A stretch of DNA of 4,504 nt, from positions 1 through 4,504 of the IMG/VR virus record IMGVR_UViG_2778261570_000002; one strand, 5' to 3'. Each line of letters starts with the position of its first letter. Position 1 is the stretch's first letter. The stretch comes from a virus (Duplodnaviria > Heunggongvirae > Uroviricota > Caudoviricetes). The position numbers and the translations under genes are program-made. The notes under the pieces were generated by a model. The model made no database searches and was not told where the DNA came from. It saw only the letters and a list, made by a program, of their open reading frames with translations. Positions 1 to 4,504 of this stretch are shown here, one piece after another.

Positions 1-107
1 CCGTTGCCGGAGCGCCCTTGCGAACAATTAACCTACTGCGCAAAAAATGAATCTGTGCGGGGGAATTATATCAACCGCGTGGAGAAGCGCCACAATTGCC
101 GAATAAC

Positions 108-140
108 AGGCAAAACAAAGGCCACCCGCTACGGTGGCCC
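108..140 (-). terminator. Putative Rho-independent terminator ending the leftward small-gene operon
   Basis: GC-rich 7-bp stem ggccacc (120-126) / ggtggcc (133-139) with a 6-nt loop. On the minus strand the hairpin is followed by a T-rich tract (complement of aacaaaacaaag, 108-119). It lies about 80 bp downstream of the stop of the 219..392 gene. Confidence 0.4.
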
Positions 141-218
141 TTCAACACAAGCTACACGTTATCCCCAACGCATGAGCATTACCGACAATGCCACATTTGC
201 GGCTGGTGGGCAATGTGA

Positions 219-392
219 TCAGTCAGATTTGGTTCGTTCCAAGGTTTGCAACGAGAGCTTTTTCCTGTGCTCTTTAAGGAATTGCTCAAGGGCAAAAGCA
301 CATGGCGCGAATCTTTCTGATTCATGCTCTATCTTTCTGCGCCGTCTTTTCCGTGTCGGTGATAATGTTTTGGTCAATTCTTTATCGGTCAT
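219..392 (-). CDS. Small, strongly basic hypothetical protein (57 aa from the second ATG; an alternative start at 407 gives 62 aa)
   Basis: Six-frame track ORF 219..407 (-). The internal ATG at 390-392 has an AGGA motif about 8 nt upstream. It sits 57 nt downstream of the 450..755 gene on the same strand. It contains a KRRRRK run suggesting nucleic-acid binding. No family recognised. Confidence 0.4.
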   Translation of the reverse strand: MTDKELTKTLSPTRKRRRRKIEHESERFAPCAFALEQFLKEHRKKLSLQTLERTKSD

Positions 393-449
393 TGTGTTGT
401 CCTGCATAGCAATGCGCCGTAATACCTTACACCACGGCGCTGGTGATGG

Positions 450-755
450 TTATTCCTGCTCTTTGGCCTTGCGACGCTGGAGTTCTTCACGTGCGACGGT
501 GACGAGCTGCCCGATCTCCTCGACAGCTTTGACTCCGATTTTTTCCACCTGCGCCAGCGCATCGAGCGAAGAAACCAGGGGATTTTCTCCGCTTCCTTCT
601 GCCTGGCGGCGGGCGATCTCACCGCGTACAGCCGTAACTATAAAATTCGCTTTAGTTTCCCATGGCTGTAGGGATGCCTCAATGCCACTCACTACTTCAT
701 GTGGAAATCTGGCATTCAGTTGCTGTGATTTATTGTTAACAGAACTCGTGGACAT
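450..755 (-). CDS. Hypothetical protein, 101 aa; first gene of the leftward unit, candidate regulator by position only
   Basis: ATG at 753-755 (minus strand) is preceded by a strong Shine-Dalgarno GGAGGTG (complement of 761-767) with a 6-nt spacer; stop at 450-452. The 180-aa track ORF (450..992) extends upstream through the operator-like repeats with a hydrophobic, low-complexity N-terminus and no RBS, so the shorter start is preferred. Confidence 0.6.
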   Translation of the reverse strand: MSTSSVNNKSQQLNARFPHEVVSGIEASLQPWETKANFIVTAVRGEIARRQAEGSGENPLVSSLDALAQVEKIGVKAVEEIGQLVTVAREELQRRKAKEQE

Positions 756-797
756 GTTTGCACCTCCGATTAATAACGGGATGCAGTGTAATACAAA

Positions 798-853
798 AGT
801 GAATACCAAAAAAGACTTGAAATGGTATTCACCAAAATGTAATCTGAATACCA
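798..853. promoter_or_regulatory. Operator-like repeats in the divergent control region (iteron-like half-sites)
   Basis: gtgaatacca (799-808) and its exact reverse complement tggtattcac (823-832) form a 10-bp inverted repeat with a 14-bp spacer, and a third copy tgaatacca lies at 845-853. The core tattcacc (826-833) is one mismatch from the iteron TGTTCACC. The repeats lie 45-100 bp upstream of the 755 start codon. Confidence 0.4.
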
Positions 854-1144
854 CAAGGGCTGATACATGCAATTCAGCAATTGAAACGACGAAGCCCCGC
901 ACTGTTGGAGCAGTAACGGGGCTTCTAACCAAACCGTTAACTGGAGTAACGATTATGGCTGTAAGACAGCATACCCCACGACTTGCGCACACACAAACGG
1001 TCTTTGTGTGGCGTTTTCTGGCACTAAGTGCCGGAGAATCTCAAATCGTCCACGTAACCGCCTGGACGGAACGCGAAGCGCGTAACCGTTGCCCGTCCGG
1101 TTGTGTCGCTGTATTCGCCGCCCGTATTCGTCAGGGGGTGCGCC

Positions 1145-1405
1145 ATGTGCAATAAAAACACGCCGGACGCAGCCGCCGAAGCCATCAAAACGCTAATGCA
1201 CGCGCTGATTGATATTTCATGCACGGCAGCAACCGCAGAAAAACACATTACCAGAGAGCCGGAGTATACAGGGGCAATAATCCCCCATTCGCTGGCCTAC
1301 GCACAGCTTACCGCTGATATGGCACTGAATGAGGCTAAAGCCATCCTGATTGCTGATTGTGAAAATGGGGGGGGGTTATGCGTGATGATCGTTTTAATGC
1401 CCTGA
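1145..1405 (+). CDS. Hypothetical small protein (86 aa), first ORF of the rightward replication operon
   Basis: ATG at 1145 is preceded by AGGGGGTG (1132-1139), a good SD with 5-nt spacing. The ORF ends at TGA 1403-1405 and its 3' end runs through a G9 tract. No family recognised. Confidence 0.45.
   Translation: MCNKNTPDAAAEAIKTLMHALIDISCTAATAEKHITREPEYTGAIIPHSLAYAQLTADMALNEAKAILIADCENGGGLCVMIVLMP
1367..1375. repeat. Homopolymeric G9 tract at the junction of two overlapping small ORFs
   Basis: Nine consecutive G read directly at 1367-1375. The tract encodes GGG in the 1145 frame and serves as the SD region for the ATG at 1378. Confidence 0.9.
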
Positions 1406-1611
1406 AACAGGAATTTGATGGCGCACCGGATGATACAGGCGATGCGTTGCTGGCTGTTAATGACCTGATAAAGGCCGCATGTTTTTTAATTGGAACCGCT
1501 GAACATTCAGGAACCGGCAACGATATTCTTATTATTGCGTCGGATTATGCTGAATATGTGGCAGAGGCGCGTTACAGAAGAAAATTACCGGAGGATGTAA
1601 GCCATGCATAA
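1378..1611 (+). CDS. Hypothetical small protein (77 aa)
   Basis: ATG at 1378 lies 2 nt after the G9 tract, which can act as SD. It overlaps the preceding ORF by 28 nt in a different frame. Stop TAA at 1609-1611. No family recognised. Confidence 0.45.
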   Translation: MRDDRFNALKQEFDGAPDDTGDALLAVNDLIKAACFLIGTAEHSGTGNDILIIASDYAEYVAEARYRRKLPEDVSHA

Positions 1612-1756
1612 TCATGAAGCACACTTACCTGTAGTGCTGAATGTACCGTCAGATTATACGGGGCGCGTTTTGATATTCCTGGATAAAGGGAAAGTGAAAT
1701 CACAATGCCGCCTTAGAAATAATGAGGTTGTTGGTTCTCTGGCTTTTTTTTTCTGA
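1604..1756 (+). CDS. Possible small ORF (50 aa) not in the supplied track
   Basis: ATG at 1604 has a strong SD GGAGGA (1590-1595) with 8-nt spacing. The start overlaps the stop of the 1378..1611 ORF. The ORF ends at TGA 1754-1756 after a T9 run that encodes FFF. Confidence 0.25.
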   Translation: MHNHEAHLPVVLNVPSDYTGRVLIFLDKGKVKSQCRLRNNEVVGSLAFFF

Positions 1757-1809
1757 AGCCTGTATTCGTGCCGGAATAAAACCGGAATCACTGACAGGAA
1801 AATAAAACC

Positions 1810-2124
1810 ATGAAAAAGAAAAATTCTGGCTTTACTGCCAGCGGCCCCGCTCGGCCTGAAATCCGCCCCGACGATATTTTCAAAGATAAATACGGCGGAC
1901 GAATAACGATAAAAACCGTCGATGATTTTCGCGTGACTTATATCCGCGAAGGTTATGCGCATCCCTGCGTGTCGTCACATATGCGTTTTGAGAGTGAATT
2001 CACCCTGGTAAGCAAAGCACCACCAGCGAACTTAAGCGACATCGACAGAATCATGCGCGTTACAGGTATGGAACGCATTAAGGCAGTACGTGAAATTATT
2101 CGTGAGCGGGGAAAGGCAAAATGA
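1810..2124 (+). CDS. Hypothetical protein (104 aa), translationally coupled to the helicase gene
   Basis: ATG at 1810 has AGGA about 10 nt upstream. Its stop TGA (2122-2124) overlaps the ATG (2121-2123) of the next gene as ATGA. No family recognised. Confidence 0.5.
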   Translation: MKKKNSGFTASGPARPEIRPDDIFKDKYGGRITIKTVDDFRVTYIREGYAHPCVSSHMRFESEFTLVSKAPPANLSDIDRIMRVTGMERIKAVREIIRERGKAK

Positions 2125-3926
2125 AACTGGCACCGAACTTAAAAAAACAGCCACACGACAAAATGACCGAAGTCATTATTTTTGCGGGTAGTGATGCCTG
2201 GGCGCACGCGAAACAATGGCAGGAGCAGGACGGGCGACTTGCCGGCGACAATGTTCCGCCTGTATGGCTTGGAGACAGCCAGCTTGACGAACTGGCAGAC
2301 CTGAAAATTATCGACGATGGTCGCTATTGTGTCCGGCTGTACAAGGCAGGCCACATCAAGCCATCAAATATTAATGCCATCGGGCAAAAGCTGGCGGCGG
2401 CAGGTGTACGGGATGCGAATTATTACCCTGAGGGGATGCACAGCCAGAAGCGGGAGAACTGGCACGAATATCTGGAGCGTGAGCGCCAGAATCTTTCTGA
2501 TGGTCTGGTTATTCAGCTTCCTGTTAAGAAAAAAACAGAAGACAGCGCCGCACCACTGGCGCTTAACCAGATGGGAGCAAGCCAGCGCGGCGAAGTTCTC
2601 CTGGCACGTTATGGCGGTGAACTGGCAATTAATGCGGACTCTGACACCGTTCACCACTACAACGGCGTTGTATGGGAGCCGGTACAGGATAAAGAGTTAC
2701 AGCGGGCTATGGCGCAGATTTTTATTGATGCGGAGATCAGTTATTCGCAGAACGCCATCAAATCGGCGGTCGATACAATGAAGTTAAGTTTGCCCGTAAT
2801 GGGGAATACCGCCCGTAACCTGATTGGATTCAGTAACGGTGTTTTTGATACCCGGACAGGCGATTTTCGGGAGCATGACAAAAACGACTGGCTGTTAATT
2901 GCCAGTGAATTACCGTTCAGCCCGCCAGCAGAGGGGGAAACGCTGGCAACGCATGCGCCGAATTTCTGGAAATGGTTGCGCCGTTCGGTGGCTGAGAATG
3001 ACCGTAAAGCGGATCGCGTACTGGCGGCGTTATTCATGGTGCTGGCGAACCGATACGACTGGCAGTTATTTCTTGAGGTAACGGGGCCGGGTGGAAGCGG
3101 TAAAAGCGTAATGGCGGAGATTTGCACCATGCTGGCGGGTAAGGCCAACACGGTATCGGCAAGCATGAAGGCGCTGGAAGATGCCAGGGAACGCGCGTTA
3201 GTGGTTGGATTTTCGCTGATTATCATGCCGGATATGACCCGCTACGCTGGTGATGGCGCAGGAATTAAGGCCATTACAGGCGGTGACAAGGTGGCAATCG
3301 ACCCGAAGCATAAAGCCCCCTACTCAACACGCATTCAGGCGGTCGTGCTGGCGGTGAACAATAACGCCATGTCATTCAGTGACCGCAGCGGGGGGATCTC
3401 ACGTCGTCGGGTGATATTCAATTTTTCGGAGGTTGTACCGGAAAACGAACGCGACCCCATGCTGGCAGAAAAAATAGAAGGAGAGCTGGCGGTTGTGATT
3501 CGCCACCTGCTTACTCGTTTTTCTGACCAGGACGAAGCTAAACGCCTGCTGTATGAGCAGCAGAAATCAGAAGAAGCACTGGTGATAAAACGCGAGGGCG
3601 ATTCGCTGGTGGACTTCTGCGGCTATCTCATGTCGTCGGTAATGTGTGATGGTCTGTTAGTGGGTAATGCCGAAATTATTCCGTTCAGTCCGCGCAGGTA
3701 TCTTTATCACGCCTATCTGGCATATATGAGGGCACACGGATTCGGTAAACCTGTAACACTGACGCGCTTCGGTAAAGATATGCCGGGGGCAATGGCGGAA
3801 TATGGCAGGGAGTATATGAAACGGAAAACGAAGCACGGTTTGCGTTCAAATGTGACCCTTACAGAGGATTCAGAAGACTGGATGCCATCATGTGCATCGG
3901 TCACAAATGACGATGGAAAAAATTAA
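2121..3926 (+). CDS. Replication protein: SF3 (D5/P4-alpha-type) helicase with a probable C-terminal origin-binding region (601 aa)
   Basis: Longest ORF in the window. Walker A GPGGSGKS at aa 322-329 (nt 3084-3107). Walker B-like hydrophobic stretch ending in Asp, LIIMPD, at aa 366-371. SF3 motif C with Asn, VLAVNNN, at aa 409-415. A cluster of P4-type iterons lies immediately downstream. SD-like GGGGAAAGG upstream of the ATG. Confidence 0.88.
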   Translation: MKLAPNLKKQPHDKMTEVIIFAGSDAWAHAKQWQEQDGRLAGDNVPPVWLGDSQLDELADLKIIDDGRYCVRLYKAGHIKPSNINAIGQKLAAAGVRDANYYPEGMHSQKRENWHEYLERERQNLSDGLVIQLPVKKKTEDSAAPLALNQMGASQRGEVLLARYGGELAINADSDTVHHYNGVVWEPVQDKELQRAMAQIFIDAEISYSQNAIKSAVDTMKLSLPVMGNTARNLIGFSNGVFDTRTGDFREHDKNDWLLIASELPFSPPAEGETLATHAPNFWKWLRRSVAENDRKADRVLAALFMVLANRYDWQLFLEVTGPGGSGKSVMAEICTMLAGKANTVSASMKALEDARERALVVGFSLIIMPDMTRYAGDGAGIKAITGGDKVAIDPKHKAPYSTRIQAVVLAVNNNAMSFSDRSGGISRRRVIFNFSEVVPENERDPMLAEKIEGELAVVIRHLLTRFSDQDEAKRLLYEQQKSEEALVIKREGDSLVDFCGYLMSSVMCDGLLVGNAEIIPFSPRRYLYHAYLAYMRAHGFGKPVTLTRFGKDMPGAMAEYGREYMKRKTKHGLRSNVTLTEDSEDWMPSCASVTNDDGKN

Positions 3927-3937
3927 ACTTATGGAAT

Positions 3938-4168
3938 AACTGTTCACCACTGTTCACCCTATCATAAATGTCTTTTATATCAGTACATTATAGGGTGAAC
4001 AGTTATTTATGAACTGTTCACCAAACTATTCACTGTTCACCTTTTTGATTGTTTATTGAGCTTAAGGGTGAACAGTGGTGAACAGTTGGTGAATAGTTTT
4101 TGTGAAACTGTTCACCCCTTAACATCATGAATAAAAAGGGAAAATCTCAAAAGGTGAACAGGTGAAGG
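3938..4168. repeat. Iteron cluster, putative origin of replication (P4 ori/crr-like)
   Basis: Nine perfect copies of TGTTCACC: on the + strand at 3941, 3951, 4015, 4034 and 4109, and as GGTGAACA at 3994, 4067, 4077 and 4153. At least three one-mismatch copies at 4027, 4088 and 4161. AT-rich spacers at 3959-3992, 4120-4150 and 4169-4200. It is directly 3' of the helicase gene. Confidence 0.7.
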
Positions 4169-4212
4169 GTTAAAATGCAAAAATTTTATTTTATTGCTGT
4201 GAGGTAAAGCCC

Positions 4213-4458
4213 GTGACAACGAAGCACGCAAAAAAACCACAATCTCACGCCCTTGATTTGACAGAACACTGGCTGAGAGTGGCGATAAAAATCATCGATC
4301 GCAACGCGGGAGAAGGATACGCGAAAGCACATCCTGAACTGATAAGCGCATTCATGACAACGGCGGCGGCAAACTTTGCCACGCTGACAGAACGAGAGAT
4401 TGCCGAAGCGGAACAGGTGACAACCATCAACGTTAAACCCGGAGAGCAGACAGCATGA
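4213..4458 (+). CDS. Hypothetical protein (81 aa), first gene of the operon downstream of the origin
   Basis: GTG start at 4213 with SD GAGG (4201-4204) and 8-nt spacing. Its stop TGA (4456-4458) overlaps the ATG (4455) of the following gene. No family recognised. Confidence 0.5.
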   Translation: MTTKHAKKPQSHALDLTEHWLRVAIKIIDRNAGEGYAKAHPELISAFMTTAAANFATLTEREIAEAEQVTTINVKPGEQTA

Positions 4459-4504
4459 CAGCACAGATAGCGGCTTACGGGCGGCTGGTGGCTGACCCGC
4501 AGTT
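4455..4504 (+). CDS. 5' end of a gene running off the window (16 codons visible); SSB-like N-terminal motif, tentative
   Basis: ATG at 4455 with SD GGAGAG (4441-4446) and 8-nt spacing; ATGA overlap with the upstream stop. The visible peptide MTAQIAAYGRLVADPQ resembles the hhhhG(N/R)LxxDP(E/Q) start of OB-fold single-stranded DNA-binding proteins. Only 48 nt are available. Confidence 0.35.
   Translation, partial: MTAQIAAYGRLVADPQ

Follow-up and report, generated by a model that had tools for sequence, protein, structure and literature searches.

A mirror-symmetric array of 12 P4-type iterons next to an alpha-like helicase gene is the probable replication origin of an Escherichia coli chromosomal island

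We analysed a stretch of 4,504 nucleotides (IMG/VR virus record IMGVR_UViG_2778261570_000002, positions 1 to 4,504; hereafter "the window") from an Escherichia coli capsid-forming phage-inducible chromosomal island (cf-PICI). The window codes for a 601-residue initiator protein that resembles the alpha protein of phage P4. Its gene is followed by an intergenic gap of 286 bp, in which the P4 type I iteron, TGTTCACC, occurs 12 times and in both orientations; nine copies are exact and three are degenerate. The first iteron begins 14 nt past the stop codon. These iterons are identical to the repeats annotated in the P4 origin (ori) and in crr, a second P4 region that is required in cis. We consider it likely that this array, directly 3' of the P4 alpha-like initiator gene, is the replication origin of the island.

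Neither the iterons nor their inverted arrangement are due to chance, as judged by comparison with shuffled sequences. When one mismatch is permitted, CTGTTCACC occurs 13 times in the window (10 of these copies fall in 3940-4161), while 0.76 copies are expected, and none of 200 shuffles reached this count. In the 286-bp gap, the longest inverted repeat without mismatches has 23 nt, compared to a mean of 7.9 and a maximum of 12 among 300 shuffles. There is no second iteron cluster in the full island, nor is there one within ±5 kb in any of the 67 relatives for which at least 9 kb are available. A DnaA box with at most one mismatch is absent from 3900-4300. A literature text search for the iteron sequence matched only unrelated primer sequences. 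An inverted pair of one-mismatch iteron copies, 31 nt apart and possibly fortuitous, is found inside the initiator gene (2616-2624 on the minus strand and 2647-2655 on the plus strand). P4 has a second origin inside the alpha gene.

The origin consists of two inverted half-origins across a 25-nt A+T-rich centre. Each half (~105 bp) is built from a double iteron, an A+T-rich spacer of 35-36 nt, a single inverted iteron, 11 further nucleotides and a triple iteron. When the 12 sites are paired from the outside inward (from 1 with 12 through to 6 with 7), the midpoints of the six pairs fall at 4054-4055.5. In an axis scan, position 4055 ranks first and mirrors 10 of the 13 called sites within ±1 bp. 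The alignment of 3938-4054 to the reverse complement of 4056-4172 has 79/122 identical positions and a score of 24, while shuffled sequences score -21 ± 5 and the direct orientation scores -24. The coordinates of all features are listed in Table 1.

Table 1. Features of the window around the predicted origin. Arrows give the iteron orientation (>, plus strand; <, minus strand), and the numbers between arrows are distances between the starts of the 8-mers.
Feature	Position	Strand	Basis or remark
Initiator gene, 601 aa, P4 alpha-like: D5_N, SF3 helicase, C-terminal origin-binding domain	2121..3926	+	Pfam D5_N, DUF5906, Pox_D5
Winged-helix origin-binding domain, codons 493-589	3597..3887	+	phmmer E 2.3e-24 to PDB 1ka8 (P4 alpha origin-binding domain)
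Hypervariable stretch of origin-binding domain, codons 565-575 (MKRKTKHGLRS)	3813..3845	+	Alignment of ~80 relatives by iteron type
Whole origin (probable): 12 iterons, dyad about ~4055	3940..4168	.	Axis scan; inverted self-alignment; layout kept in 47 relatives
Left half-origin, P4 ori layout, > 10 > 43 < 21 > 12 > 7 >	3940..4041	+	
Site 1	3940-3948	+ (>)	Centre 3944.5
Site 2	3950-3958	+ (>)	Centre 3954.5
Left outer spacer, 35 nt, 77% A+T; candidate unwinding region	3959..3993	.	Composition
Site 3	3994-4002	- (<)	Centre 3997.5
Site 4	4014-4022	+ (>)	Centre 4018.5
Site 5	4026-4034	+ (>)	Centre 4030.5; degenerate CTATTCACT
Site 6	4033-4041	+ (>)	Centre 4037.5; exact
Central spacer, 25 nt, 76% A+T, holds dyad axis ~4055	4042..4066	.	
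Right half-origin, < 10 < 11 < 21 > 44 < 8 <	4067..4168	+	
Site 7	4067-4075	- (<)	Centre 4070.5
Site 8	4077-4085	- (<)	Centre 4080.5
Site 9	4088-4096	- (<)	Centre 4091.5; GGTGAATAG, 1 mismatch
Site 10	4108-4116	+ (>)	Centre 4112.5
Right outer spacer, 36 nt, 72% A+T, purine-rich on + strand, P4 crr-like	4117..4152	.	
Site 11	4153-4161	- (<)	Centre 4156.5
Site 12	4161-4168	- (<)	Centre 4164.5; degenerate GGTGAAGG
First gene downstream of origin, 81 aa, unknown function	4213..4458	+	phrog_1231; in full island (L001 annotation), SSB gene next

A first-pass annotation of this DNA had described a smaller symmetric unit (3938-4087), made up of a 23-bp inverted repeat with a palindromic iteron pair between its arms. 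The elements themselves are as it reported. The sequence at 3938-3960 (AACTGTTCACCACTGTTCACCCT) is the exact reverse complement of 4065-4087, and each arm carries two copies of CTGTTCACC in tandem, 10 bp apart. The palindromic pair consists of site 3 (GGTGAACAG) and site 4 (CTGTTCACC), separated by 11 nt; its complementarity reaches further, to 11-nt arms with a 7-nt spacer. That the array is a symmetric iteron-type origin adjoining its helicase gene also held, but the axis (~4055, not ~4012) and the extent had to be revised. The palindrome, which was called central, has its midpoint at 4008, while that of the arms is at 4012.5, i.e., 4.5 bp away. These two axes mirror only four called sites each, as opposed to the 10 mirrored at 4055. 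Six iterons were not covered by the description, two of them between the arms (sites 5 and 6) and four to the right (sites 9 to 12). Conservation of the symmetry across relatives had been proposed as a check. Of 64 close variants, 49 have 23-nt arms without a single mismatch; the offset between arms and palindrome drifts from -2.5 to +5.5 bp among 47 more distant relatives. The 20-nt core of the arm, CTGTTCACCACTGTTCACCC, also occurs in P4 ori. Thus, the identity of the arms is explained by a conserved double-iteron unit, and it is no proof that they are partners. The arms and the palindrome are by-products (sub-patterns) of the iteron layout and not the architecture itself.

Conservation was analyzed at two levels. 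The close-relative sample comprises 82 sequences, 64 of which are distinct. In these 64 variants, iteron positions are 98.4% conserved, compared to 91.9% for the spacers. With respect to the arms, 11 variants have one mismatch in addition to the 49 perfect ones, one has two mismatches, two lack one unit and one is poorly aligned. For the distant-relative sample, one genome per species was scanned, which resulted in 80 loci. An iteron array follows directly after the homologous gene in every scored locus, even though at least six iteron sequences are in use (the core sequences include TGTTCACC, TGTCTACC, TCTCCACC, TGTCCGCC, TATCTACC and TGTATACC). The chain > 10 > 43 < 21 > 11 > 9 > G < 11 < 10 < 21 > 43/44 < 9 <, with G being the central gap, is followed by 10 or more of the 12 sites at 47 loci. 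Genera that keep this 12-site layout include Klebsiella, Pectobacterium, Serratia, Rahnella, Xenorhabdus, Photorhabdus and Zobellella. The midpoints of the six mirror pairs concur within 0.5-2.5 bp in these 47 relatives. The length of the left outer spacer is also kept, with a site spacing of 42-43 in all 42 scorable relatives. The central gap has either 19-25 or 31-34 nt, with none at 26-30 (L084-L163). The two classes are about one helical turn apart, which hints at helical phasing of the central gap.

The layout can be compared directly with P4. Apart from general background, the facts on P4 were taken from the annotation of GenBank NC_001609. There, TGTTCACC is annotated as "ori type 1 repeat", with six copies in ori and five copies per 120-bp crr repeat, in both orientations; ori is listed there as origin, and crr is a cis-required region of its own. 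Read along the alpha gene, the ori of P4 and of nine close relatives has the layout >10>43<22>11>10> and is located ~2.3 kb upstream of alpha, while two crr units, each <14>18>43<9<, start from ~50 nt after alpha. The ori layout resembles the left half of the window array (>10>43<21>12>7>), and the >43<9< of the crr unit resembles the outer part of the right half (>44<8<). Both systems agree in how the ori-like and crr-like parts are ordered and oriented with respect to the initiator gene. There are, however, clear differences. In P4, ori and crr are 4.7 kb apart and flank the alpha operon, while the window halves are separated by 25 bp and are both downstream of the gene. P4 crr is a direct duplication of 120 bp, while the window halves are single. 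As a further difference from P4, we note that the initiator gene and the array are not separated by a terminator. The separate, distant crr of a P4-type origin was not found in the island, which has a single iteron cluster; instead, a crr-like module is fused to the ori-like half. The first-pass annotation had contrasted its mirror arrangement with the direct repeats of P4 crr. This is correct insofar as two inverted halves differ from two direct 120-bp repeats, but it misjudged the relationship, since the type I repeats of P4 ori and crr occur in both orientations and the two halves of the array have the layouts of ori and of part of a crr unit.

The sequences of the outer spacers lead to the same assignment. 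The right spacer is identical to each crr spacer at 27 of 36 positions (z 4.0-4.6; none of 500 shuffles was as good), and it shows no such similarity to the P4 ori spacer (z 1.9). For the left spacer, the P4 ori spacer is the best match (22/35, z 3.4). Among 39 distinct relatives, the left spacer is nearer to P4 ori than to crr in all cases, and the right spacer is nearer to crr in 31. A blastn search matched window 4066-4123 to P4 ori (9309-9367; 81% over 58 nt, E 4e-5). From this match alone, the right half might be taken as the counterpart of P4 ori, in flipped orientation. We set this assignment aside because spacing, orientation and spacers make the left half ori-like. All outer spacers begin, beside the single iteron, with a common motif, roughly C-TTAAC/TATAA-N4-5-(C/A)TG-A/T, which is not an iteron. 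It is present in the window at 4117-4133 and, on the reverse strand, at 3977-3993, and it also occurs in relatives, in P4 ori (L002, 9361-9377) and in the crr spacers.

The compact 12-iteron type after the initiator gene is found in the window, in EcCICFT073, and in elements from Xenorhabdus, Photorhabdus, Pectobacterium and Serratia. Because a second iteron cluster was found neither in the 67 relatives nor in the full island, the compact dyad is the usual form in our sample, and the separated ori and crr of P4 look like the exception. We tentatively suggest, leaning slightly to the side of doubt, that P4 crr is the second half of a split dyad origin, with its halves parted by the 4.7-kb alpha operon and with crr having been duplicated.

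Origins of E. coli PICIs have been described before. Fillol-Salom et al. (2018, PMC6092414) place them 3' of the initiator gene and describe them as sets of iterons on either side of A+T-rich DNA. The same source reports that a pri-ori segment from EcCICFT073 maintains a temperature-sensitive plasmid, which is abolished upon removal of pri and significantly reduced upon removal of ori, and it compares Pri-Rep proteins with P4 alpha. In the text available to us, we found no mention of a dyad of 12 sites or of how it relates to P4 ori plus crr. The window array is placed in the same way, directly 3' of the pri-rep gene in an island with int and alpA-type regulation, and its iteron sets flank spacers with 72-77% A+T. 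In EcCICFT073 (L245), the 288-bp region after the pri gene reads >9>48<20>11>9>33<11<20>48<9<, with TGTCTACC-type sites. EcCICFT073 shares with the window the gene order, the site layout and the position directly 3' of the pri-rep gene, but its iterons are TGTCTACC/TATCTACC, both outer spacings are 48, and the initiator is 48% identical to that of the window. Replication was demonstrated by experiment for the EcCICFT073 pri-ori; the window origin is predicted from its sequence. We assign the window array to the P4/PICI-type origins, and to the same family as EcCICFT073. Because PICI origins were already described and the EcCICFT073 pri-ori replicates, this kind of origin is already known.

More distant systems show partial likeness. 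The core origins of SV40 and papillomaviruses (initiators: large T antigen and E1) have dyad binding sites with A+T-rich flanks, as in the window, and their initiators, like mpox E5, are SF3 helicases, as is the window initiator. However, there is no sequence relationship, and the binding domain is N-terminal to the helicase in these viruses and C-terminal in the window. The SV40 core origin has ~64 bp, compared to 12 sites over 230 bp in the window. The iteron origins of theta plasmids (R6K, pPS10, P1) have repeated initiator sites beside A+T-rich DNA, in step with the helical repeat, like the window. Theta-plasmid origins have direct repeats of 17-22 bp, a Rep protein without helicase activity and DnaA boxes, and they depend on host DnaB. 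The window, in contrast, has sites of 8-9 bp in both orientations, a helicase as initiator and no DnaA box, and its origin is not of the plasmid type.

The initiator is 45% identical to P4 alpha, with gaps over the N-terminal primase region of alpha (alignment A2). Besides the domains listed in Table 1, there is a weak Pfam match to PPV_E1_C. P4 alpha is matched by both Zn_Ribbon_Prim and Toprim_3 and has zinc-ribbon and Toprim primase domains. A Pfam search with residues 1-150 of the window initiator (window 2121-2570) gave no match, so the protein is without both domains. This N-terminal region matches only phrog_2850, a family of unknown function. The protein is annotated as "DNA primase family protein" despite having no recognisable primase domain. 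Among relatives, two size classes are seen, one short (~580-617 aa) and one long (777-831 aa).

When the ~80 aligned relatives are grouped by iteron type, residues 565-575 of the initiator change with the iteron sequence. K[RK]xTKxG accompanies TGTTCACC, both in the window and in P4, a five-residue insertion (GPDKGR) accompanies TGTCTACC, and a one-residue insertion accompanies TCTCCACC. This co-variation is good indirect evidence that the C-terminal domain reads the iterons. By analogy, codons 565-575 may correspond to the "wing" of the winged helix. The hypervariable stretch, in which insertions of 1-5 residues occur, follows the iteron sequence (relatives L082, L087, L097, L100, L154 and L163). 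The protein of L082 is 90% identical to that of the window, but all of its iterons read TGTTCAT(T/C). Its C-terminal domain differs by a cluster (KRKTKHGL to KKRTTAGV), one conservative Ile-to-Leu change and the extreme C-terminal tail. L082 resembles a recent natural specificity switch, from TGTTCACC to TGTTCAT(T/C), with five clustered substitutions.

We propose that the C-terminal winged-helix domain of the initiator would bind the iterons and that each six-site half would gather one hexamer, because a hexamer carries six DNA-binding domains. The two SF3 helicase rings would then face each other across the 25-bp A+T-rich centre. Melting would take place in the three A+T-rich spacers, and replication would be bidirectional, as in P4. 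Priming would presumably be taken over by host or helper enzymes because the initiator is devoid of the primase domain of alpha. Head-to-head loading of two hexamers, which the first-pass annotation had suggested, is plausible by analogy, since SF3/D5-type helicases form head-to-head double hexamers on DNA, as reported for mpox E5 and SV40 large T antigen (PMC12137749).

Several observations weigh against a symmetric dyad with one helicase ring per half. Of the 12 window sites, three carry 1-2 mismatches and are thus degenerate, and EcCICFT073 has 11 sites. There are natural variants without one 10-bp iteron unit, either in the left arm (L038) or in the right arm (L012). The two size classes of the central gap follow lineage and stem from few independent lineages, and for this reason they are weak support for phasing. 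In the blastn alignment with P4 ori, the inner triple of the right half is flipped, so that it is mainly the spacing and the outer spacers that assign one half to ori and the other to crr; such a flipped alignment is expected, however, because the dyad is mostly made of iterons. Finally, the halves are not equivalent, since their spacers differ in a consistent manner among relatives (ori-like in the left half, crr-like in the right half). An origin with an auxiliary site therefore fits as well as symmetric loading does. The array may thus be an asymmetric bipartite origin, with initiation occurring only in the ori-like left half and the crr-like right half being auxiliary, so that the mirror geometry would reflect looping or bridging. 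In P4, replication is initiated at ori, with crr being required in cis and bridged to ori by alpha. This, the separate annotation of the two elements in the P4 record and the likeness of each spacer to a different P4 element would all fit this model. It is nevertheless rather unlikely, in our opinion. The geometries of the two halves are mirrored within 1-2 bp in the 47 relatives and the lengths of the outer spacers co-vary (43/43-44 in most cases, 48/48 in EcCICFT073), which therefore indicates more constraint than a simple auxiliary binding site would need.

The unit proposed by the first-pass annotation, with one helicase ring on each 23-bp arm around the palindrome, is very improbable. The repeat is exact and kept in most close variants, and in the Xenorhabdus group, the arms and the palindrome are nearly concentric (offset ~0.5 bp), but six conserved sites would be left unexplained, and the palindrome is off-centre, to a varying degree among relatives. 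Moreover, natural variants are without a unit in either arm, and the right arm is part of a run of three iterons plus an inverted one, which aligns with P4 ori past 4087. We have equally little confidence in a mainly regulatory or copy-control function of the array, either as operator for the downstream ssb operon or through iteron "handcuffing", in place of initiation. Plasmid iterons do serve in copy control, and the array is located between the initiator gene and the next operon without a terminator. However, we found no sigma-70-like promoter (and no intrinsic terminator) in 3800-4300, so that a regulatory role was not assigned. In addition, the array is homologous to P4 ori, there is no alternative iteron cluster that could serve as origin, and the equivalent region of EcCICFT073 is needed for efficient replication (PMC6092414). 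It is most unlikely that the inverted repeats act as a DNA structure (a cruciform or single-strand hairpins, e.g., as a priming signal) and not as protein-binding sites. A single-stranded fold of -49.9 kcal/mol (z -6.4) and an initiator without primase domain might point in this direction, but strong folding is uninformative because any iterons in both orientations fold. The lowest-energy fold consists of local hairpins and does not involve the 23-bp arms, and the co-variation of the putative wing with the iterons points to protein recognition.

With respect to the wider context, the window from 1797 onward is 99% identical to an E. coli chromosomal island of ~14 kb (L001), which is located between cspD/yljB and clpS. 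Its gene order is int, a helix-turn-helix (HTH) regulator, an Icd-like gene, a DUF4222 gene, the 601-aa gene, the 286-bp iteron region, a small open reading frame (ORF), SSB and PerC, which is followed by capsid, protease, portal, connector, HNH, TerS and TerL. A cf-PICI has ~10-18 kb, modules for integration (int), regulation and replication, and its own capsid, protease, portal, HNH, TerS and TerL genes, but no tail or lysis genes. According to its annotation, L001 (~14 kb between yljB and clpS) has this size and gene content. Among 5,426 complete E. coli genomes, 594 carry the iteron region, with identities of 90-100%.

Upstream of 1797, window and L001 diverge. The region 1112-1606 matches at 92%, and the first 1.1 kb is without any match. 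The regulatory left end (window 1-1796) is a mosaic among islands with a common replication module. Two overlapping ORFs (1145-1405 and 1378-1611) correspond to the two consecutive halves of a single 154-aa family, phrog_2512, and join at a run of nine G (1366-1374). This suggests a frameshifted or slippage-prone gene. Although deposited as a phage, one relative (L003; LR881103.1, "Escherichia phage vB_KppS-Ant", 16.5 kb) is organised like a cf-PICI-like satellite. It carries an integrase, an alpha-like initiator (76% identical to that of the window), the same 12-site origin, and a capsid and terminase module.

The window thus appears to hold a compact natural P4-type origin, in which 230 bp accommodate the two cis elements next to each other. 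If one hexamer is indeed loaded per six-site half, the requirement of P4 for crr in cis would be explained. One short fragment may therefore bear on ring loading per half, on the requirement for crr in P4, and on how a short stretch of protein sets iteron specificity. For the latter, L082 represents a natural specificity switch that is at hand. There are also consequences for genome annotation. Such "DNA primase family" proteins of E. coli PICIs have no recognisable primase domain, and their origin can be located by the fixed spacing of its 12 sites, even if the iterons have another sequence.

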